DNA from: an uncultured beta proteobacterium
Lineage (GTDB): Bacteria > Pseudomonadota > Gammaproteobacteria > Burkholderiales > SG8-39
DNA length: 64,000 nucleotides
Assembly (NCBI GenBank): GCA_963714925.1
Contig: CAVQQK010000018.1
Span: 60,361 to 124,360 of the forward strand
Direction: 5' to 3'
Position 1 is the first letter of the stretch, and every line of letters starts with the position of its first letter. Positions 6,162 through 57,395 of this stretch are shown here, in pieces. Both the position numbers and the translations under genes were made by a program. Below the pieces are notes generated by a model. That model did no database searches. It was given only the letters and a program-made list of their open reading frames with translations, and was not told where the DNA came from.

Positions 6162-6241
6162 GGCGGCCGATTCTACGGGGACTGGCGGCGGCTTCACCGA
6201 AGCGGCTATAATCCGCCCCTTTTCAGCGACCTGGAGACTGG

Positions 6242-20730: not shown

Positions 20731-22149
20731 TCAGCGCGCCTCCGGCTGCGGCAGAGTGAGAATCGCTTCCAGACCGCCGCTCGGTCGGTTCTTCAATACA
20801 AGATCGCCGCCGTGCGCGTGGGCGATGTTGCGTGCGATGCCCAGGCCGAGCCCGGTTCCGCCGGTCTCACGACTGCGCGAGGACTCGCCCCTGAAGAAAG
20901 GCTCGAACGCGCGTTCGAGCTCTTCATCGGCAATGCCGGGTCCTTCATCCAGCACGCGGATCGTGATCCGTTTCGCTCCTTCCTCGGCCCTGAGCGTCGC
21001 GCGCTTGCCATAGCGGATCGCGTTGTCGACGAGATTGCTGAGGCAGCGGCGCAGCGCCAGCGGCCTGCAGGCGAACGGATGCGCGAGGCGGCCTTCGACC
21101 TCGACCGTGTTTCCCATGTCCTGGTAATCGGTCTGCAGGCTCTCCAGCAGCGCCATGAAGTCCACGCGTTGCACGGGTTCGCTTGCACTCGCGTCGCGCA
21201 TGAAGTCGAGGGTGTGGGCGACCATCGACTCCATTTCCTCGAGGTCCTTCGAGAACTTTGCGCGCAGCGCTTCGTCGTCCAGCAATTCGGTGCGCAGCCG
21301 CAGCCGCGTGATCGGCGTCTTCAAGTCGTGCGACATGGCCGTGAGAATGCGGGTCCGGTCGCTGATGAAGCGCGCCAGTCGCCCCTGCATGGTATTGAAC
21401 GCGCGGGCGGCGCGGCGCGCTTCGATCGGCCCGGTCTCGGGCAGCGGAGGACGATTGATGTCCTCGCCCAGCTGCTCCGCGGCGCTCGCCAGCGTCGAGA
21501 GCGGGCCGGTCACCCAGCGTACTGCCACCAGCGACAGCGCGACGACGGTACCGAGGAGCACGAGCAGCGTCAGGCCGAGGCGCAGCGGCATCTCCGCGGA
21601 CTCGGGGGAAACAAATGAATCGAAGGTCACCACAGCGCCGTCGCGAAGCACCACTTGGACCACGAAAAACGTACTCTCCGAATGCATCGTCTGCATTCCG
21701 CCGCCGGGCATGGGGTGCTGCATCATCGGCATGCGGGGCGGACTTCTCTGCTCTCGTTGCCCGTAGCGCGCCGGGACACCCGCTGCCCTCACCCCCCGAA
21801 CGTGCATGCCCTCGCCGAGGGCGTAGCGCAATACGGTCGCGAACATCGAAAGCCGCATGTCGGCCTCCGGTGACCCACGGTCCGTCGCCATCGGGGGGCG
21901 GTCGAGCGAAATCGCGAGTGGCGGCGCGTTGAAGACCGAGACGATCCTGCGGCGTTCCTCGGGGGAGACCGAATCGAGCAGCTTGCTGACGTCCGCGACG
22001 CGCTGCGCCACCTGCATGCCGCTCGCGCGGTAGAGCAGTTGGTCGCGTTCGCTCAGATTGAGGTAGGCGGTGGCCAGCTGCGCAAAAACCAATCCGCACA
22101 GCAGGATCAGAACGAGGCGTCCGAAAAGACCGCGTGGCAGCAGGCGCAC
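20731..22149 (-). CDS. Two-component sensor histidine kinase (HAMP-HisKA-HATPase; CpxA/RstB-like architecture)
   Basis: Two TM segments flank a periplasmic domain with Met/His-rich PPRMPMMQHPMPGGGMQTMH. H-box MSHDLKTPITRL and G-boxes GTGLGLGIA. Confidence 0.85.
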   Translation of the reverse strand: MRLLPRGLFGRLVLILLCGLVFAQLATAYLNLSERDQLLYRASGMQVAQRVADVSKLLDSVSPEERRRIVSVFNAPPLAISLDRPPMATDRGSPEADMRLSMFATVLRYALGEGMHVRGVRAAGVPARYGQREQRSPPRMPMMQHPMPGGGMQTMHSESTFFVVQVVLRDGAVVTFDSFVSPESAEMPLRLGLTLLVLLGTVVALSLVAVRWVTGPLSTLASAAEQLGEDINRPPLPETGPIEARRAARAFNTMQGRLARFISDRTRILTAMSHDLKTPITRLRLRTELLDDEALRAKFSKDLEEMESMVAHTLDFMRDASASEPVQRVDFMALLESLQTDYQDMGNTVEVEGRLAHPFACRPLALRRCLSNLVDNAIRYGKRATLRAEEGAKRITIRVLDEGPGIADEELERAFEPFFRGESSRSRETGGTGLGLGIARNIAHAHGGDLVLKNRPSGGLEAILTLPQPEAR

Positions 22150-22871
22150 TAGCGCTTCACCTCGACCGGCACGGCGAGCACGTATCCCTCGCCGCGTACG
22201 GTTTTGATGATCTTTGGATCGGTCGGGTCGTCGCTAAGACGATGCCGCAACCGGCTCACCTGATTGTCGATCGAGCGGTCGAACGGCTCGGCTTCGCGGC
22301 CGTGCGTAAGCATCATCAGCTGATCGCGGCTGAGTACGTGGTTGGGGTGGTCGAGGAAAATCCGTAGCATCCGGAACTCCGCGCCGCTAAGCGACATGAC
22401 CACGCCGTCGGGCGAAATCATGTGGCGCGCGACGGTATCGAGGCGCCACCCGGCGAAGGTCATGGTGCGCGCCTCCTCGGCGCGCAGATCCCGCGGCAGG
22501 CTGCGGTGACGCCGCAACACGCTCTTGATGCGGGCGAGCAGTTCGCGCGGGCTGAAGGGCTTGGCGAGATAGTCGTCCGCGCCGATCTCCAGGCCGACAA
22601 TCCGATCGGTCTCCTCTCCCCGTGCGGTGAGCATGATGACCGGCATATCCGAATCGGCGCGAAGTTTGCGGCACAGCGCGAGACCGTCGTCGCCGGGCAG
22701 CATGAGGTCGAGCACGATCAGGTCGATCTTGCTGCGCGACAGCGCCGTCCACATCGCCTTGCCGTCGGCAACGACCGTGGCCTTGCAGCCGCTCTTGCGC
22801 AGGTACTCGCCAAGGAGGCCGCGAATTTCGGCGTCATCGTCGACGACAAGGATGTGATCGATGCTTTCCAT
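22149..22871 (-). CDS. OmpR-family DNA-binding response regulator
   Basis: REC (ILVVDDD...VLDLMLPGDDG...MLTARG...GADDYLAKPF) plus a winged-helix C-terminus (IKTVRGEGYV). Overlaps the kinase start. Confidence 0.9.
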   Translation of the reverse strand: MESIDHILVVDDDAEIRGLLGEYLRKSGCKATVVADGKAMWTALSRSKIDLIVLDLMLPGDDGLALCRKLRADSDMPVIMLTARGEETDRIVGLEIGADDYLAKPFSPRELLARIKSVLRRHRSLPRDLRAEEARTMTFAGWRLDTVARHMISPDGVVMSLSGAEFRMLRIFLDHPNHVLSRDQLMMLTHGREAEPFDRSIDNQVSRLRHRLSDDPTDPKIIKTVRGEGYVLAVPVEVKR

Positions 22872-23074
22872 GGGCGTATCTATATCCGCTGGCCAGGCCG
22901 CCGTGCAACGGATTTGTAGCCTACTGTAACCGGCTCCGTTTCCGATACGCGGGCGTACAAAAACGCGACGCGACGCTTACATCGGCATGGCGTAATGGGA
23001 ACCAACGCGGCAGCGCATCAGACCGACGCGCAGGAGCCGCAGATTTCCAGACTTCACCAAACGGAGATTCGATC

Positions 23075-23692
23075 ATGAGAAACATCACCAAAATCGCATT
23101 GGCCGTCGGCACGGCACTGTCGCTCGGACTGACTGCCACGGGACTGAGTGCACAGCCCTCCGGCATGGGGTGGGGAGGCCACGGCCCGGGTCACGGCATG
23201 CACGGTTACGGCATGGGACCCAACGCTGGCATGGGATACGGCATGCACGGCTACGGCATGGGACCCAGCGCTGGCATGGGTTACGGCATGCACGGCTACG
23301 GTATGGGCTTCGGCGCGGATGCCGAATCGGTAGAAGGCGGTCTGGCAGGTCTGAAGTCGGCGCTGGGAATCACCGCCAAACAGGAGCCCGCGTGGCAGGC
23401 ATTCGTTGAGAGCGTGAAGCAGCGGGAGGAAAGCAGGGCGTCGTGGTTCGCCAAGATGCACGAAGCGCGGGCTGCCGGTTCGCTGCCGGAACTGCTGGCG
23501 CAGCAAGATGAGGTATTCAAGCAGCATCAAGCCGAAAGACAGGCAACGACATCGGCACTGACGGAACTCTATGCCGCACTCTCGCCGGAGCAGAAAACGA
23601 TCGCGGATCGGCGCTTCGGCGGATACGGCCCGCAATACGGTGGGGGATATGGCCGGGGATACGGCGGCGGGCCCGGCGGGCGCAATCGCTAG
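23075..23692 (+). CDS. Periplasmic Spy/CpxP-family-like protein with N-terminal Met/His/Gly repeats and a Gly/Tyr-rich tail
   Basis: Signal peptide, 3 x 15-aa GMHGYGMGP(N/S)AGMGY repeats, and a helical core with LTXXQ-like segments (ITAKQEPAWQAF; LTELYAALSPEQK). Divergent from the RR/HK pair. Confidence 0.65.
   Translation: MRNITKIALAVGTALSLGLTATGLSAQPSGMGWGGHGPGHGMHGYGMGPNAGMGYGMHGYGMGPSAGMGYGMHGYGMGFGADAESVEGGLAGLKSALGITAKQEPAWQAFVESVKQREESRASWFAKMHEARAAGSLPELLAQQDEVFKQHQAERQATTSALTELYAALSPEQKTIADRRFGGYGPQYGGGYGRGYGGGPGGRNR
23195..23329 (+). repeat. 3 x 45-bp in-frame tandem repeat encoding GMHGYGMGPxAGMGY
   Basis: Direct reading of the DNA and protein repeat inside CDS 23075-23692. Confidence 0.85.
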
Positions 23693-23800
23693 CGTGGGGG
23701 AAAGGGCCGGGCGACAAGTCCGGTCCAACCCTTGGAATTCGCCGTTCCAGCCATACCGCACGCGTAATCACAGCGAGCGCGTGCAGGACGGGAGACAAGG

Positions 23801-23890
23801 ATGATGTGGGGATATGGCGAGATCGGCAAGAACGAGTTCGAGGAGAAGCGGCGTGACCTCTCCGCCAGCTGGGCCGGTGGCCGTGGATAG
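23801..23890 (+). CDS. Candidate 29-aa upstream small ORF overlapping the multicopper oxidase start region
   Basis: GGAGA lies 5-6 nt before ATG 23801. High GC3 and no AGA/AGG codons, whereas the overlapping oxidase frame uses 4 AGA/AGG codons here. Its TAG overlaps candidate GTG starts 23877/23883. Confidence 0.25.
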   Translation: MMWGYGEIGKNEFEEKRRDLSASWAGGRG

Positions 23891-25430
23891 GCAACGCAGA
23901 AATTTCCTCGGGGTTGCGGGCGCAACGGCGATGGCAGGCACGCTGCCGTTCCTGCCGTGGTCGCGTATGACAGCGGCTGCGACGACGGACAAGTCCACAC
24001 CCGACGTCGAGATCGAACTCGTGGCGCGGCCCGATGAAGTGCAGCTGCTGCCGGGCCGGCCCACGGCGGTATGGCGCTACGTCGGCCGCGTGCTGAAAGG
24101 TCCCCCAGAGGCGTTGCAGCCGATTCCCGATAGCTACGCGGGCCCGATCTTACGATTCAGGACCGGACAGAAGGTGCGCATCCGATACCTTAATCGGATA
24201 CCGCAACCCAGCATCGTGCACTGGCACGGCTTGCTTGTTCCGGAGCGGATGGACGGCCATCCGCGCGATGTGGTTCCCGCGGGCGGCGAGTACGTCTACG
24301 AGTTCGAAGTCCGCAACCGCGCGGGTACCTACTGGTTTCATCCGCATCCGCACGGATACACGGGAACCCAGGTCTACGGCGGTCTCGCGGGGCTGTTCCT
24401 GGTGAGCGATGACGAAGAGCGTGCGGCGCGGCTGCCGACCGGCGAGCGCGACATTCCCATCGTGCTCGCCGACCGCACCTTCGATACGGCGAACCAGCTG
24501 GTCTATGAGGCCGCAATGGCTCGCGGAATGATGGGTGCCATGATGGGCTTCTTCGGCGAGCGCATACTCGCCAACGGCCGTCCGTCGCTCTCGTTTCCTG
24601 CTGCGACCGGGGCGTATCGCGTGCGACTTCTCAATGGCTCGAACTCGCGCATCTACCGCATTGCGCGATCTGACCGCAAGCCGTTGGTGGCGATCGCCTC
24701 TGACGGCGGTCTGCTCGCCGCGCCGGTCACAAGACCGTTTCTCGTGCTCGGACCAGCCGAAAGGGCCGAACTCTGGGTCGATTTTCACGCCGAGTCGGCC
24801 GGCGGTCGAATTGCCCTGGTCGCCGAGCCGCTCGACTTCGGCGGTCCGGGCATGGGAATGATGGGGCGCGGCATGGGCGGCATGATGGGGCGCGGCATGG
24901 GCGGCGGTGGCGGCCGGCAGTCCGCCGCACCCCATCCGTTTGCGTTGTTTACGGTCGGCCGAGGCGGCGGCCGCCAGGCGCTCCCGGCCCGGCTGGCCGA
25001 GCTCGCGCCACTCGCGGCACCGCAACAAGCGCAGCGGCGGGAATTTGCGATCACCCTGGGTCAAATGCGCTGGGGCATCAACGGTCGCACGTTCGAAATG
25101 GAAGCGGTGGCACCTTACGAGAAGGTCCGGTTCGGCGGCACCGAGGTGTGGGAGTTCAGCAACCGTACGCCCATGATGGCCGTCCCGCATCCGATGCATG
25201 TCCACGCGGTGCAGTTCCGTGTGCTCGAGCGGATCGGCACACCCCCCGGTCTTGATGGACTCCGCGCCGGCTTCCTCGACGCTGGTCTGAAGGACACGGT
25301 GCTGGTGCTGCCCGGCGAGCGCGTGCGGGTGCACCTGAGCTTCAATGCCTTTCACGGGCTCTTTCTTTATCACTGCCACAACCTCGTGCACGAGGATACG
25401 GGGATGATGCGAAACTACCTTGTCACGTGA
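23814..25430 (+). CDS. Tat-exported multicopper oxidase (CopA/CueO-like) with a Met-rich insert
   Basis: Twin-arginine motif DRQRRNFLGVAG. Copper-site motifs HWHG, HPHPHG, HPMHVHAV, YHCHNLVHEDTGMM. Met-rich GGPGMGMMGRGMGGMMGRGMGGG. The true start may be GTG 23853/23877/23883. Confidence 0.85.
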   Translation: MARSARTSSRRSGVTSPPAGPVAVDRQRRNFLGVAGATAMAGTLPFLPWSRMTAAATTDKSTPDVEIELVARPDEVQLLPGRPTAVWRYVGRVLKGPPEALQPIPDSYAGPILRFRTGQKVRIRYLNRIPQPSIVHWHGLLVPERMDGHPRDVVPAGGEYVYEFEVRNRAGTYWFHPHPHGYTGTQVYGGLAGLFLVSDDEERAARLPTGERDIPIVLADRTFDTANQLVYEAAMARGMMGAMMGFFGERILANGRPSLSFPAATGAYRVRLLNGSNSRIYRIARSDRKPLVAIASDGGLLAAPVTRPFLVLGPAERAELWVDFHAESAGGRIALVAEPLDFGGPGMGMMGRGMGGMMGRGMGGGGGRQSAAPHPFALFTVGRGGGRQALPARLAELAPLAAPQQAQRREFAITLGQMRWGINGRTFEMEAVAPYEKVRFGGTEVWEFSNRTPMMAVPHPMHVHAVQFRVLERIGTPPGLDGLRAGFLDAGLKDTVLVLPGERVRVHLSFNAFHGLFLYHCHNLVHEDTGMMRNYLVT

Positions 25431-32845: not shown

Positions 32846-32897
32846 CGGTTCATTGTCCCTGATGCAGCTTGTGCTGTAAAATCCGCGCCCTACTGAC

Positions 32898-41005: not shown

Positions 41006-43034
<2,029 letters not shown>

Positions 43035-43157: not shown

Positions 43158-43213
<56 letters not shown>

Positions 43214-43233
<20 letters not shown>

Positions 43234-43687
43234 CGATTTGCGAGCGTCGCGAGCAAAATCTAGCAAGGATGATTCCGCCCTTGGCCACCACGATTTGCGA
43301 GCGTCGCGAGCAAAATCTAGCAAGGATGATTCCGCCCTTGGCCACCACGATTTGCGAGCGTCGCGAGCAAAATCTAGCAAGGATGATTCCGCCCTTGGCC
43401 ACCACGATTTGCGAGCGTCGCGAGCAAAATCTAGCAAGGATGATTCCGCCCTTGGCCACCACGATTTGCGAGCGTCGCGAGCAAAATCGAGCAAGGATGA
43501 TTCCGCCCTTGGCCACCACGATTTGCGAGCGTCGCGGGCAAAATCGAGCAAGGATGATTCCGCCCTTGGCCACCACGATTTGCGAGCGTCGCGAGCAAAA
43601 TCGAGCAAGGATGATTCCGCCCTTGGCCACCACGATTTGCGAGCGTCGCGAGCAAAATCGAGCAGGCGTAATTGCCCTTGGTCGCGA
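43214..43687. repeat. 57-bp tandem array (7 full units, a truncated 8th and a degenerate 9th tRNA-end copy), each unit being the last 20 nt of tRNA-Phe plus a 37-nt spacer
   Basis: GATTCCGCCCTTGGCCACCA recurs at 43214, 43271, 43328, 43385, 43442, 43499, 43556 and 43613. The spacer is CGATTTGCGAGCGTCGCGAGCAAAATC(T/G)AGCAAGGAT. A degenerate copy ATTGCCCTTGGTCGCGA sits at 43671-43687. Confidence 0.95.
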
Positions 43688-50592: not shown

Positions 50593-51420
50593 ATGAACCT
50601 GGGCGACGCGCTGCAGACGGCCGGGCTCGACCGGCGCGAGGCGCGGCTGCTGCTGGCAGCGGCGAGTGGCATTCCCGAGGCGCGTTTCGTCGCGCATCCG
50701 GAGCATGAGCTCGATGAATCGTCGCGGTCGCGGTTCGAGGCGTGGACGGCGCGCCGCAAGCAGGGCGAACCCATTGCCTATTTGACCGGCTGGCGCGAGT
50801 TTTACGGACTGACGCTCGCGGTGACGCCCGCCGTGTTGATCCCGCGCCACGAGTCAGAATTGCTCGTCGAGCGCGCGCTCGAGCGGCTCGCGGCGCAGGC
50901 GACCCAGCATGCCTGCCGCGTGCTCGATCTGGGTACCGGGAGCGGCGCGCTGGCGCTCGCGATCAAGCGCGAATGCCCGTCGGCACGGCTGTGTGCAGTC
51001 GACGCGAGTCGGCCGGCGCTCGCGGTGGCCCGAGGCAACGCGCTTCGGCTCCGGCTGGATGTCGACTGGCGCGAGGGCCATTGGTACTCGGCCGTGCCGG
51101 GTGCGTGCTTCGACGTGATCGTGTCGAACCCGCCCTACGTTGCACTGGGTGATCCCCACCTCGCCCAGGGGGACCTGCGTTTCGAGCCAACAGCGGCACT
51201 GATCGGCGGCACTGACGGTCTGGCGGCGATTCGGGACATTGTGCGCGACGCGCCGGCCCATCTGCGCCCGGGCGGCTGGCTGTTCCTGGAGCATGGCTAC
51301 GACCAGGCAGTCGCCGTGCGGGCCTGCCTGCAGGCCGCCGATTTTGAGGAGATTGCCACGTGGCGGGACCTGGCAGGCCATCTGCGGGTCAGTGGCGGCC
51401 GGTTTGGCGGCGCCCGTTGA
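50593..51420 (+). CDS. prmC: Release-factor glutamine N5-methyltransferase
   Basis: PIAYLTGWREFYG, SAM motif LDLGTGSGALAL, catalytic NPPY (VSNPPYV). Confidence 0.9.
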   Translation: MNLGDALQTAGLDRREARLLLAAASGIPEARFVAHPEHELDESSRSRFEAWTARRKQGEPIAYLTGWREFYGLTLAVTPAVLIPRHESELLVERALERLAAQATQHACRVLDLGTGSGALALAIKRECPSARLCAVDASRPALAVARGNALRLRLDVDWREGHWYSAVPGACFDVIVSNPPYVALGDPHLAQGDLRFEPTAALIGGTDGLAAIRDIVRDAPAHLRPGGWLFLEHGYDQAVAVRACLQAADFEEIATWRDLAGHLRVSGGRFGGAR

Positions 51421-51470
51421 CCACGGTCGGGACCGTCGCTAAAATCCGACCAAATTCGTCAACTATTGCC

Positions 51471-51523
51471 TTATTCACCGGTTATCCACGCGTTATTCAC
51501 CCGTTATTCACTCGTTTTCCACA
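51471..51523 (+). promoter_or_regulatory. Array of five direct DnaA-box-like 9-mers with 2-bp spacers (11-bp period)
   Basis: TTATTCACC (51471), TTATCCACG (51482), TTATTCACC (51493), TTATTCACT (51504), TTTTCCACA (51515). Each matches TTATNCACA at 8/9. Confidence 0.6.
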
Positions 51524-51537
51524 CCTCAGGATTCATC

Positions 51538-51864
51538 ATGGACAGCCAAGAGATCATCAAACAGAAGGTCAATGCTCACCCCGTCGTGCTCTTCATGAAG
51601 GGCACGCCCCAGTCCCCAATGTGTGGCTTTTCGGCGACCGTCGTGCAGGTTCTGCAGGCGAGCGGCGTCGACCAGTTCCACAGCGTCAACGTACTCGAGG
51701 ACCCGGCGATTCGCGAGGGCATCAAGCAGTTCGCCAACTGGCCGACGATTCCGCAGCTCTACGTGAACGGAGAGTTCGTCGGCGGTTGCGACATCCTGCG
51801 CGAGATGTTCCAGAGCGGTGAGCTGCAGCAGGTGCTCGCCGGCGCGCGCAACGTCTCCGCGTAG
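51538..51864 (+). CDS. grxD: Grx4-family monothiol glutaredoxin
   Basis: 108 aa from ATG 51538 with the CGFS active site (GTPQSPMCGFS) and WPTIPQLYVNGEFVGG. Confidence 0.9.
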   Translation: MDSQEIIKQKVNAHPVVLFMKGTPQSPMCGFSATVVQVLQASGVDQFHSVNVLEDPAIREGIKQFANWPTIPQLYVNGEFVGGCDILREMFQSGELQQVLAGARNVSA

Positions 51865-51901
51865 CCGCGGCAGGCGCCCCGCGTAGCCCGAGGACTGCGC
51901 A

Positions 51902-52660
51902 CTACAGACGACGCGCAGCGGCGGCGAGCCGCTGCGCCAGCGTCTGCGCCTGGCGCAGGTAGCCCGTGCCGAACAGGTTGAGGTGGTTCAGCACGTGATA
52001 GAGGTTGTAGAGGTCCTTGCGTACCGCGTAGCCGGGGTCGAGCGGCCAGCGCGCTGCGTAGGCGGCGTAGAACGCGGGCGGAAATCCGCCGAATAATTCA
52101 GTCATCGCAAGGTCGGCCTCGCGGTCGCCGTAGTACACCGCAGGATCGTAGAGCACCGGTCCCGCGGGCGTGAATCCAACGTTGCCGTGCCACAGATCGC
52201 CGTGCAGGAGCGAAGGTTGCGGGCGGTGGCCAGCAAGCAGAGCGCGCAAACCGTCCAGGTCGAACACGAAGCCGGATTGGCCTGCGCGCGCCGCCTGCGG
52301 CGCGAGTCGTTTCTCGAACCAGAACGCGGGCCAGTCGTCGTACCAGCCGTTCGCCTGCGGCGCGAGACCGATCCAGTTGTCCCTGGCCCAACCGAACCGC
52401 GGTGGCGTATTCGGATGGCGATGAAGTGCTGCCATGGCCTGCCCGAGTGCCGGCCAGTCGGGGGCGCCCCCGAGATCGAGGCGCTGCATTTCGATGACCG
52501 CCTCGCCTGATCGCTCGCCCACCGCAATCACGCGCGGCACCGGGGCACCGGCGGCCGCGAGTGCGGCGAGTCCCTCCGCTTCCGCGCGATACATCGGCGC
52601 ACACGTTGCCGGGCCGCGCTTGACGAAGCTCACCGATTCATCAATTTGCCAACGCGCCAC
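51902..52660 (-). CDS. Fructosamine/ketosamine-3-kinase family protein
   Basis: LLHGDLWHGNVGF...DPAVYYGDREADLAM...YNLYHVLNHLNLFG. The N-terminus looks ~30 aa short, so the start is uncertain. Confidence 0.8.
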   Translation of the reverse strand: MARWQIDESVSFVKRGPATCAPMYRAEAEGLAALAAAGAPVPRVIAVGERSGEAVIEMQRLDLGGAPDWPALGQAMAALHRHPNTPPRFGWARDNWIGLAPQANGWYDDWPAFWFEKRLAPQAARAGQSGFVFDLDGLRALLAGHRPQPSLLHGDLWHGNVGFTPAGPVLYDPAVYYGDREADLAMTELFGGFPPAFYAAYAARWPLDPGYAVRKDLYNLYHVLNHLNLFGTGYLRQAQTLAQRLAAAARRL

Positions 52661-55596: not shown

Positions 55597-56616
55597 ATGC
55601 CGGACTTCCGCAATCTCGGTGTAATCGCGCGCGTGCTCGTCGGGGTCAACCTGCTTGCACTCGGCGCGGTGCTTGCTGCTGCGCCGGGCTGGAATGAGCT
55701 GCTCGAGCGGGTCTTGCGCGCGGCGGGATTCGTCGAACCGGTCCTCCTCGCGAGCGTACTCGTGCTCGCCGCGCTTTCGCCGATGCTTGGGCGACTCGCA
55801 TTTGTCGGCGGTACCTGCGCCGTGCTGTTCGTGGTGTCGGCAGTCACCACGCTGGCCCATGTCGCGGTAGCGAATGCGCAGGGCATTGCGGTGGGTGCAG
55901 AACTCGCGCAAGCGATTCTGCTGACCGGGCTCGCGACGATCACCCTTTTGGGTTATCTGCGGCTGGCAGCCAAGGCCTATTCGCCGGCGCTCGCGGAAGC
56001 GCGCTTGCAGGCGTTGCAGGCACGCATCCGACCACACTTCCTGTTTAACAGTCTGAACGCAGTGCTGTCGTTGATTCGGCGTGATCCTGCGCGCGCAGAG
56101 CGCGCGCTGGAGGATCTCGCGGATCTTTTTCGCACCCTGATGTCGGACGCGCGGACATTTGTGCATCTCGCTGACGAGATCGCGCTACTCGAGCGCTACG
56201 CGAGCCTGGAGCAGCTTCGGCTCGGCGAGCGCCTGCGCATCGTCTGGGAACTCGATGCCGCACCGTCGGATGCGATCCTCCCGCCGCTCCTGCTGCAGCC
56301 GCTGCTCGAGAACGCCATCTATCATGGCGTCGAACCGTCGATCGAGCCGGCCGAAGTCGTGGTGCGTATCGCGCAACGCGGCGACCGCCTGCATGTGCAC
56401 ATCGACAATCCTTATTCGGATCGGCATGGCCACCATACGGGCAATCGCATGGCAATTGAAAACATCCGCGAGCGATTGATGCTGTTCTTCGATGCCGAGG
56501 CGCGACTCGAGGCGCGCATCGAGGGCGATCGGTATCATGCCGAAGTCGAAATGCCGTACCGGCCGGCGCCGGCCCTGCGGCGCGGTGCCGGGGGTGGCAC
56601 GAAGCGAGGAGATTGA
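55597..56616 (+). CDS. algZ: LytS/AlgZ(FimS)-type sensor histidine kinase
   Basis: 4-5 TM N-terminus, His_kinase motif RIRPHFLFNSLNAVLSLI, and an ATPase region. argH-algZ-algR-hemC synteny as in Pseudomonas. Confidence 0.8.
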   Translation: MPDFRNLGVIARVLVGVNLLALGAVLAAAPGWNELLERVLRAAGFVEPVLLASVLVLAALSPMLGRLAFVGGTCAVLFVVSAVTTLAHVAVANAQGIAVGAELAQAILLTGLATITLLGYLRLAAKAYSPALAEARLQALQARIRPHFLFNSLNAVLSLIRRDPARAERALEDLADLFRTLMSDARTFVHLADEIALLERYASLEQLRLGERLRIVWELDAAPSDAILPPLLLQPLLENAIYHGVEPSIEPAEVVVRIAQRGDRLHVHIDNPYSDRHGHHTGNRMAIENIRERLMLFFDAEARLEARIEGDRYHAEVEMPYRPAPALRRGAGGGTKRGD

Positions 56617-57395
56617 ACGTGCTGCGCGTGTTTATCGCGGACGACGAGGCGCCGGCGCGCGCCCGGCTGCGCGAATTGATGGAAGACATCATGCCCGAGG
56701 CACCGACGCAGGTTGTCGGCGAGGCGCGCAACGGCGTCGAAACCATCGAGCGCTTGCCGCAGAGCGGCGCCGACGTCCTGCTGCTCGACATCGAGATGCC
56801 CGGTATGCACGGGCTCGAAGTCGCCAGGCATCTGACCCGGCTGTCCGACGCGCCGGCGGTGATTTTCGTGACCGCACACGACCGCCATGCGGTCGATGCA
56901 TTTGAACTTAACGCGCTCGACTACCTGCTCAAGCCGGTGCGTTCGGCACGCCTCGCGGCGGCGCTCAAGCGTGCCGCGGCGATCGGTGCGCCGTCGGCTC
57001 CGGTGCTCGAGCGCGCGGCCGAGCAGGTACGCCAGACCGACGGTCGCGGACGCAGTCATTTTTCACTCGCGGAACGCAATCGAATCGTACTCGTACCTGT
57101 CGCCGACGTTGTCTATCTCAAGGCCGATCAGAAGTACGTCACGCTGCGCACGCGCGAGCGCGAGCACCTGATCGACGAATCGCTTGCATCGCTCGAAGGC
57201 GAGTTTGGAGAAATGTTTGTGCGCATTCACCGCAACTGCATCGTCGCCAGGAACGCGGTGCGCGGGTTCGAACGTGCACCGACCGCGGAGGATGAGGAGG
57301 CACACTGGCTCGTGGTGCTTGAGGGCGTGCCGGAACGCTTGCCGGTCAGCCGGCGGCAGTGGTCGTCGCTGCGCGCGCTGGTGGCGCAGAAGTGA
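56613..57395 (+). CDS. algR: LytTR-family response regulator (AlgR-like)
   Basis: REC (VFIADDE...LLLDIEMPGMHG) plus a LytTR C-terminus (VYLKADQKYVTLRT...FVRIHRNCIV). TTG/GTG start overlaps the kinase stop. Confidence 0.85.
   Translation: MNVLRVFIADDEAPARARLRELMEDIMPEAPTQVVGEARNGVETIERLPQSGADVLLLDIEMPGMHGLEVARHLTRLSDAPAVIFVTAHDRHAVDAFELNALDYLLKPVRSARLAAALKRAAAIGAPSAPVLERAAEQVRQTDGRGRSHFSLAERNRIVLVPVADVVYLKADQKYVTLRTREREHLIDESLASLEGEFGEMFVRIHRNCIVARNAVRGFERAPTAEDEEAHWLVVLEGVPERLPVSRRQWSSLRALVAQK

Follow-up and report, generated by a model that had tools for sequence, protein, structure and literature searches.

In E. coli oriC, low-affinity DnaA sites form clusters of four, with 2 bp between neighbouring sites, and are filled cooperatively from a strong box (PMC6070618). 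Outside oriC, 15 of the 16 regions bound by E. coli DnaA in chromatin immunoprecipitation sequencing were pairs of boxes 2-3 bp apart; the addition of 1 bp between paired boxes abolishes binding, and DnaA roadblocks inside transcribed regions have been documented (PMC11317965). Chromosomal DnaA-box clusters that lie outside the origin and hold DnaA oligomers include datA and DARS1/DARS2 of E. coli and the clusters of B. subtilis and Streptomyces. The present analysis concerns a 64-kb stretch of DNA (64,000 nucleotides of contig CAVQQK010000018.1, hereafter the window) from an uncultured member of the Burkholderiales, in which the gap between prmC and grxD, the gene for a monothiol glutaredoxin, holds five phased DnaA-box-like 9-mers (hereafter the array). 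The 9-mers had been pointed out in an earlier note on this DNA. Judged from the way its sequence has evolved, the array behaves like a real protein-binding site and is probably a non-origin docking and roadblock element for DnaA.

The closest parallel is one half, right or left, of the DnaA-oligomerisation region of E. coli oriC, a strong R box with four low-affinity sites (Rozgaja et al. 2011, summarised in PMC6070618). The array likewise combines one consensus box with four weaker boxes in the same orientation, with 2-bp spacers and a total of about 55 bp, and cooperative filling that depends on ATP-DnaA would be expected of it as well. Unlike the oriC half, it lies outside the origin, in a transcribed leader, without an unwinding element, a site for integration host factor (IHF) or an opposing half, and its weak boxes differ from those of oriC in deviating from the consensus mainly at position 9. 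The double boxes at DnaA-regulated promoters of E. coli (Stringer, Fitzgerald and Wade 2024, PMC11317965) resemble it in their non-origin location, their spacing of 2-3 bp and a placement suited to regulating or blocking transcription. In contrast to these, the array has five boxes instead of two, its gene encodes a monothiol glutaredoxin, which is not among the described DnaA targets, and it belongs to an uncultured betaproteobacterium that is known from sequence alone.

Among the non-origin clusters, datA differs in needing an IHF site between its boxes and in spanning about 180-260 bp, DARS differs in having a box of opposed orientation, and the Bacillus clusters are larger and irregular, whereas the array is compact, keeps a strict phase and points in one direction only. 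Its 11-bp unit design recurs in the phased arrays adjacent to dnaA in many phyla and in the repeats of Buchnera pTrp plasmids (GGTTATCCACC), whose TTATYCACC followed by GG is almost identical to the first unit of the array; the Buchnera arrays are long, with identical units, and lie at putative origins, whereas here five diverged units stand in the leader of a gene. The array would belong to the known class of non-origin DnaA-box sites, its apparent novelty being the grxD target and the perfectly regular five-box design.

Five phased DnaA-box-like repeats in the prmC-grxD gap

In the list of open reading frames (ORFs), the gap between prmC and grxD measures 117 bp, the prmC stop codon ending at 51420 and the grxD ATG lying at 51538. 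Direct reading of the sequence found five 9-mers in the gap, all on the plus strand and at an exact 11-bp phase, and bore out the head-to-tail arrangement and the matches of 8/9 to the consensus TTATNCACA that had been reported (Table 1). The four consecutive pairs all have the same orientation and a spacer of exactly 2 bp. This spacing had been likened to that of the low-affinity sites of oriC, which is correct (PMC6070618), and it is also the geometry of almost all sites bound in vivo by E. coli DnaA outside oriC (PMC11317965). Tandem Repeats Finder reported a period of 11 with 4.7 copies at the array, which is 53 bp long. As given in PMC5835720, the Schaper-Messer consensus is TTWTNCACA, and a 9-mer such as TTTTCCACA, the sequence of box 5, falls within it and counts as a good box; boxes 1-4 match the same consensus at 8/9. 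Box 5 is a candidate high-affinity anchor.

Boxes 1-4 have the exact core TTATNCAC in common. All four exact matches to this core in the window lie inside the array, against 1.29 expected window-wide. The chance that an arbitrary tandem 11-mer of the genome carries TTATNCAC on either strand was estimated at 6e-5 (empirical) to 3.4e-4 (from composition), indicating that the likeness to DnaA boxes is no by-product of repetition. No phased pair of boxes was found elsewhere in the window, and no reverse-strand box within one mismatch of the consensus was found near the array. Three independent metagenome assemblies carry the array without a single base difference, so that an artefact of assembly is excluded.

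Position of the array in the grxD leader

The -35 and -10 hexamers of a sigma-70-type promoter, TTGACC-17-TAAAAT, precede grxD and are kept in each of the 17 close relatives that were compared, whether these carry the array or not. Since the hexamers are conserved while the spacer between them varies, this promoter is taken as real, in agreement with the earlier suggestion that TAAAAT is the -10 element of grxD. From the usual distance of about 7 nt after the -10 element, transcription would start near 51452, which places the array at about +20 to +72, inside the transcribed grxD leader and downstream of the transcription start as had been supposed. No terminator was found between prmC and grxD in a scan of positions 51000-52200, and read-through from hemA-prfA-prmC would therefore cross the array too.

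Two details of the earlier description were revised. The A+T content of 51439-51470, put at about 63%, was measured as 59.4%. The -10/discriminator motif that was said to recur upstream of four other genes is found in its exact form, TAAAATCCG, only once elsewhere, at 32877 before a tRNA-Ala gene; the other three occurrences, at 6207, 43108 (before tRNA-Phe) and 48150 (before hemA), read TATAATCCG.

The early leader CCGACCAAATTCGTCAACTATT is older than the array, as it is also found in relatives that have no array. Conservation of these first 22 or so nucleotides (core CAAWT-N4-5-TCAACTATT) reaches from close relatives as far as Rhodocyclaceae-type genomes and does not depend on the array; they were seen upstream of grxD at loci L014, L017, L024, L025 and L205-L218; the conserved early leader had no Rfam match and no clear IHF match. 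The TTGACC hexamer overlaps the prmC stop codon, as it contains TGA, and the overlap is kept in all close relatives. An N-terminal extension of GrxD or a leader peptide encoded by the TTG ORF at 51466-51864 was rejected: the repeat period, 11, is not divisible by 3, homologues begin at the MD(S/T)Q ATG, and the Shine-Dalgarno sequence precedes that ATG. A link to the LytTR regulator gene (56613-57395) through the leader word TTCGTC was dropped, as the word is not conserved among relatives.

Table 1 Features of the prmC-grxD region. Positions are those of the window.
Feature	Sequence	Position	Strand	Basis and conservation
prmC (release-factor glutamine methyltransferase)		50593..51420	+	ORF; PrmC_N/MTS Pfam families on the identical gene in L200
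grxD promoter, -35	TTGACC	51417..51422	+	promoter scan 10/12; 17-bp spacer to -10
grxD promoter, -10	TAAAAT, then CCG discriminator	51440..51445	+	promoter scan
Early leader	CCGACCAAATTCGTCAACTATT	51446..51467	+	alignments; also in relatives without the array
Box 1	TTATTCACC	51471..51479	+	8/9 to TTATNCACA; core kept in 4/5 lineages, L216 = TTGTCCAC
Box 2	TTATCCACG	51482..51490	+	8/9 to TTATNCACA; core kept in 4/5 lineages, L216 degenerate = TTATCACC
Box 3	TTATTCACC	51493..51501	+	8/9 to TTATNCACA; changes between lineages at positions 5 (consensus N) and 9 only
Box 4	TTATTCACT	51504..51512	+	8/9 to TTATNCACA; changes between lineages at position 9 only
Box 5	TTTTCCACA	51515..51523	+	8/9 to TTATNCACA, 9/9 to TTWTNCACA; unchanged in 5/5 lineages, including A at position 9
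Shine-Dalgarno	AGGA	51528..51531	+	6 nt before ATG; in 4/5 array lineages, L216 = AGAA
grxD (Grx4-type monothiol glutaredoxin, 108 aa)		51538..51864	+	homologues named monothiol glutaredoxin / Grx4 family, with PF00462

Evolutionary origin and sequence constraint

The array was absent from all 80 species-level relatives fetched from the genome collection, whose GrxD proteins are at most 77% identical and too distant to inform on its history. Closer metagenomic relatives were obtained as a graded series from a protein search, followed by DNA look-ups and one metagenome pattern scan. Among these, the array occurs in only five lineages, with GrxD 100-89% identical (the window, L224, L203/L204, L239/L259 and L216), and is missing in seven sister lineages with GrxD 83-90% identical (L205, L206-208, L209/210, L211-213, L214/215, L217 and L218). 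The promoter and the early leader CCGAsCAAwTTCGTCAACTATT are common to all of them. The array-less sisters have the same prfA-prmC-grxD-kinase synteny, an unrelated leader end of 25-27 bp and no evident Shine-Dalgarno sequence. In a neighbour-joining tree of grxD the array bearers form one clade, indicating a single gain; the array is a lineage-specific insertion and dates from the common ancestor of this small group of uncultured Burkholderiales. In the array-less lineage L217, the conserved leader is directly followed by CTATTCACCGG, which agrees with unit 1 at 10/11 positions and may represent the proto-box that gave rise to the repeat. A GrxD homologue of 163 aa (P0002, ENA) has about 55 residues duplicated internally (VADLKTVNVLEDEEIRQGIK... 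twice), probably through tandem duplication or as an assembly chimera of a metagenome contig; it was considered as a GrxD that reads through an array and was rejected as a partial-duplication chimera only.

Conservation in relatives, proposed as a check on the array, was found within the clade only. The five lineages align without any indel from the -35 hexamer to the ATG, each keeps five units, and the distances of the array to the promoter and to the Shine-Dalgarno sequence are fixed in all of them. Among the five units, the numbers of variable columns at positions 1 to 11 of the 11-bp register were 0, 0, 1, 0, 2, 1, 1, 0, 2, 3 and 4. The seven positions that the consensus specifies were variable in 3 of 35 columns, compared with 11 of 20 at position 5 and positions 9-11 (Fisher p = 2.7e-4) and with 34 of 106 third codon positions of grxD (p = 0.007). 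The position that is free in TTATNCACA, position 5, is among the varying ones, and the pattern of constraint equals the DnaA consensus: specified positions are held while position 5 and the spacers are free, as under purifying selection, in a small sample of five related lineages. Identity is 87% between orthologous units and 72% between paralogous ones, the latter figure being the same within and between lineages. As orthologues are closer than paralogues, the units are not homogenised and their similarity is not due to concerted evolution. The differentiated five-unit array has been stable since the ancestor of the clade and appears to be kept by selection.

Phased DnaA boxes in other genomes

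The species-level genome collection was scanned for three TTATNCAC boxes at 11-bp phase, and at least 119 loci were found. Among the 119 matches listed, dnaA is present at 46, never more than 882 bp from the array (median 119 bp), and dnaN at 40; recF, gyrB and yidC are also enriched. Two of the matches listed are from Polynucleobacter, a member of the same order as the window's organism, with the array about 50 bp upstream of dnaA. The 11-bp-phased geometry is linked to dnaA in other genomes. A narrower scan for the flavour of the window's array (a pyrimidine at position 5 and G/C at positions 9-11) gave 18 loci, with no member of the clade and no betaproteobacterium among them. Four of the 18, from Micromonospora (69% GC), Actinoplanes, Blautia and Kroppenstedtia, adjoin or separate dnaA and dnaN and read TTATCCACCGGTTATCCACCGG..., indicating that C or G is a normal base at position 9 when phased arrays adjoin dnaA. 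The sole plasmid match to the prmC-grxD gap was a Buchnera pTrp plasmid, with at least 22 copies of its repeat (e.g. NZ_LT667502.1); the tandem repeats of these plasmids, which bear DnaA boxes, are regarded as a putative origin (PMC4898801).

Further phased arrays were noted in these scans. Away from dnaA, arrays of TTATCCACCAC with up to 15 units were seen in 25 low-GC genomes (a subset of L098-L199, e.g. L111 4502-4796, L099 and L139), several of them labelled Dependentiae or Babeliales, at a conserved site by nusA-infB, a UDG-family gene and a C11 peptidase gene; they may represent either the replication origin in that lineage or a DnaA-box cluster that has been conserved. The sequence GCTTATCCACCGCTTATCCACCGCTTATCCACCCGATAAA is repeated at scattered sites and includes phased DnaA-box-like units; it was seen on at least four contigs of one Paludibacteraceae genome (fecal_MAG_38; L266, L267, L273 and L280) and in related metagenome-assembled genomes (L268, L275, L277 and L279), and is possibly the end of a mobile element. 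Phased triple boxes away from dnaA were also seen upstream of lpxC in a Neisseriaceae genome (Conchiformibius kuhniae, L151 618-727), where both strands carry arrays, before a plasmid RepA_C gene (L152 5898, Geminicoccaceae), and between genes for an FHA-domain protein and an ABC permease (L162 1973). Phased arrays outside origins may be commoner than is generally appreciated.

Other features of the window

The genes of the window are chromosomal in character and include dnaG-rpoD, cytochromes, a copper system, groES/EL, hemA-prfA-prmC-grxD and a fructosamine kinase gene, as well as a Ser/Thr kinase gene with a cNMP domain, argH, the LytTR regulator, hemCDXY, hemF and purD. At 20731-25430, genes for an OmpR-type regulator and a histidine kinase are divergent from a multicopper oxidase gene, and coding repeats rich in Met and Gly (units such as ATGGGCGGC) lie in and upstream of the oxidase ORF at 23193-23307, 23621-23665 and 24858-24907; such repeats are typical of CopA-like copper-resistance proteins. 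A similar ATGGGCGGC repeat, present five times, ends groEL at 42978-43026. At 43214-43664, 7.9 copies of a 57-bp unit follow one another at 99% identity. The repeat begins inside the 3' end of tRNA-Phe (43158-43233), so that the last 20 or so nucleotides of the tRNA (GATTCCGCCCTTGGCCACCA) and a 37-bp spacer recur eight times downstream of the gene. It could represent serial integration or excision scars, or replication slippage.

Discussion

The preferred reading, to which about an even chance is given, is that the five boxes form a compact DnaA-oligomerisation array that would both block grxD transcription and titrate DnaA. The mechanism that we infer is modelled on the oriC half-origin, in which five same-oriented sites are fed from a strong box. 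DnaA would dock on box 5, and ATP-DnaA would then fill boxes 4 to 1 cooperatively, head to tail. The resulting complex would cover about 55 bp at about +20 to +72 and obstruct RNA polymerase arriving from the grxD promoter or by read-through from prmC. GrxD synthesis would fall when active DnaA is high, and about five DnaA molecules would be bound per chromosomal copy. That DnaA is the ligand of the array, whether it acts as a roadblock or in titration, is fairly likely overall.

Several points weigh against this reading. Boxes 1-4 lack the A at position 9, and this position is not conserved in them, so that each alone would be a weak site. The constraint test covers five closely related lineages with only about 14 variable columns. 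All three core changes fall in L216, whose box 2 is degenerate, and for the window and L216, identity in the core (87.5%) exceeds identity at third codon positions (80%) by a modest margin only. The sister lineages manage without the array. A short major-groove word and an A/T-rich stretch every 11 bp would suit a winged-helix response regulator too. Lastly, no functional reason for a tie between GrxD and DnaA has been demonstrated, and the organisms are uncultured.

It is possible, if unlikely, that the array binds DnaA and was selected for a role in the DnaA cycle, as a sink that titrates DnaA or as an element of timing, broadly in the manner of datA or of the Bacillus clusters. Its location in the grxD leader would then be an accident of the birth of the repeat, and any effect on grxD incidental. 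The evidence from sequence, geometry and constraint is the same for this explanation as for the roadblock; a row of five sites would bind several DnaA molecules in each copy, and DnaA-box clusters that restrain initiation from outside the origin are known in E. coli, B. subtilis and Streptomyces (PMC5742627; PMC2533591). However, five sites are few against the hundreds present per genome (307 consensus boxes in E. coli; PMC5835720), no datA-like IHF site is present, and the fixed distance of the array to the promoter and the Shine-Dalgarno sequence points to a link with grxD expression.

Two narrower forms of this explanation, a datA-like and a DARS-like locus, had been raised by the earlier note and are not upheld. 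Strictly defined, a datA (DDAH) locus is something other than this array. The boxes are not flanked by an IHF-like site, the sole match to WATCAANNNNTTR with one mismatch in the gap is the overlap of boxes 2 and 3, the window-wide count of such matches equals chance, and the array is far shorter than datA. The core of DARS needs a box I that is opposite to boxes II and III (PMC5742627), whereas all five boxes here are on the plus strand.

The array could also be the operator of another protein that reads direct repeats, either a winged-helix regulator of the OmpR/PhoB type or a ribbon-helix-helix protein as at plasmid parC, its likeness to DnaA boxes being coincidental; this is quite doubtful. 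An 11-bp phase of direct repeats is typical of OmpR/PhoB-type regulators (pho boxes, ArcA and PhoP sites), the conserved T-rich bases and YCAC would fit contacts of a recognition helix and a wing, and an OmpR-type regulator gene lies in the window at 22149-22871. The operators of this family are direct repeats at a phase of 10-11 bp and are usually pairs near -35. The phase of the array agrees with this, but the number of units and their position do not: five half-sites are odd for dimers, and +20 to +72 is unusual for an activator. To our knowledge, the array matches no OmpR/PhoB-type consensus. Four units carry the exact DnaA core, for which a chance match has a probability of about 1e-4, and the position 5 that varies is the free position of the DnaA consensus. 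A second phased pair is lacking in the window, even with relaxed matching, and the OmpR-type regulator of the window adjoins the multicopper oxidase and the histidine kinase and hence most likely serves a copper system.

A neutral history is improbable. In such a history the array would be an 11-bp minisatellite, expanded through slippage of a proto-box located where the conserved leader ends, and binding of DnaA would be inconsequential. Its confinement to one small clade and absence from the sisters are in keeping with this, and the CTATTCACCGG sequence of L217 suggests a local seed. The number of copies and their register are nevertheless constant in the five lineages, without an indel, the substitutions avoid the core in both of the comparisons given above, and the units retain individual identities.

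It is very improbable that the array acts as RNA, namely as an unstructured 5' untranslated region, rich in pyrimidines and A, whose repeated UUAUYCAC words would recruit an RNA-binding protein or a small RNA or aid the initiation of translation. The lack of structure fits: the leader folds no better than shuffled controls (minimum free energy -11.9 compared with a shuffle mean of -15.3 kcal/mol, z = +1.2). The array also arrived together with a canonical Shine-Dalgarno sequence that the array-less relatives lack. On the other side, the conserved word is the DnaA box, the 11-nt phase equals one turn of DNA, and we know of no meaning of an exact 11-nt phase for RNA-binding proteins. Rfam gave no match at the gathering threshold or at E <= 1, and with neither a match nor a structure, a riboswitch, attenuator or other cis-regulatory RNA was rejected.

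Although phased arrays of DnaA boxes are typical of origins, a part in a replication origin, be it the chromosomal oriC or an integrated plasmid origin with iterons, can be dismissed: most 2-kb bins have a positive GC skew and none falls below -0.022, the cumulative curve climbs steadily over the 64 kb without a switch, the window holds no dnaA, dnaN or recF (tblastn with proteins of other loci: 46 DnaA, 40 DnaN and 26 RecF), the annotated neighbours include no rep gene, the gap (51% A+T) has no AT-rich unwinding element and is filled by the promoter, leader and Shine-Dalgarno sequence, and the hemA-prfA-prmC-grxD synteny is common to array-less relatives. Plasmid iterons are repeats beside a rep gene, usually with units of 17-22 bp. 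The array has prmC, grxD and the fructosamine kinase and Ser/Thr kinase genes as neighbours, in the chromosomal synteny of the array-less relatives, and plasmid-type iterons, one form of the iterons raised by the earlier note, were rejected together with an origin. An origin of the segment from a mobile element, plasmid or phage was also rejected, as there was no phage match and the sole plasmid match was the Buchnera DnaA-box repeat.

Non-origin DnaA sites and DnaA roadblocks are already established concepts. If DnaA does not bind the array, the array points to an unknown regulator that copies the DnaA box. If DnaA assembles here, as the roadblock reading supposes, the array would be a very clean natural minimal module for unidirectional DnaA oligomerisation outside the origin, and at about 55 bp it would be small enough to serve as a defined DNA in work on cooperative filling and its dependence on ATP. 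The birth of such an array would be readable from sister lineages that do or do not carry it.

GrxD takes part in iron-sulfur and iron trafficking, and ribonucleotide reductase, a classic DnaA target, needs iron loading; the latter is the sole basis for a link between DnaA and iron. If the roadblock reading is true, monothiol glutaredoxin would join the short list of DnaA-controlled genes, which hints at coordination between the initiation of replication and iron or iron-sulfur supply. More speculatively, and with a low probability, the array may be a newborn, self-contained sensor of the DnaA-ATP filament, half-origin-like in form, that came from tandem duplication of the leader proto-box and ties the supply of GrxD to initiation. 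Such a sensor would be a previously undescribed link between the initiator and iron-sulfur and redox homeostasis in these uncultured Burkholderiales, and a natural example of how a DnaA-assembly region originates.

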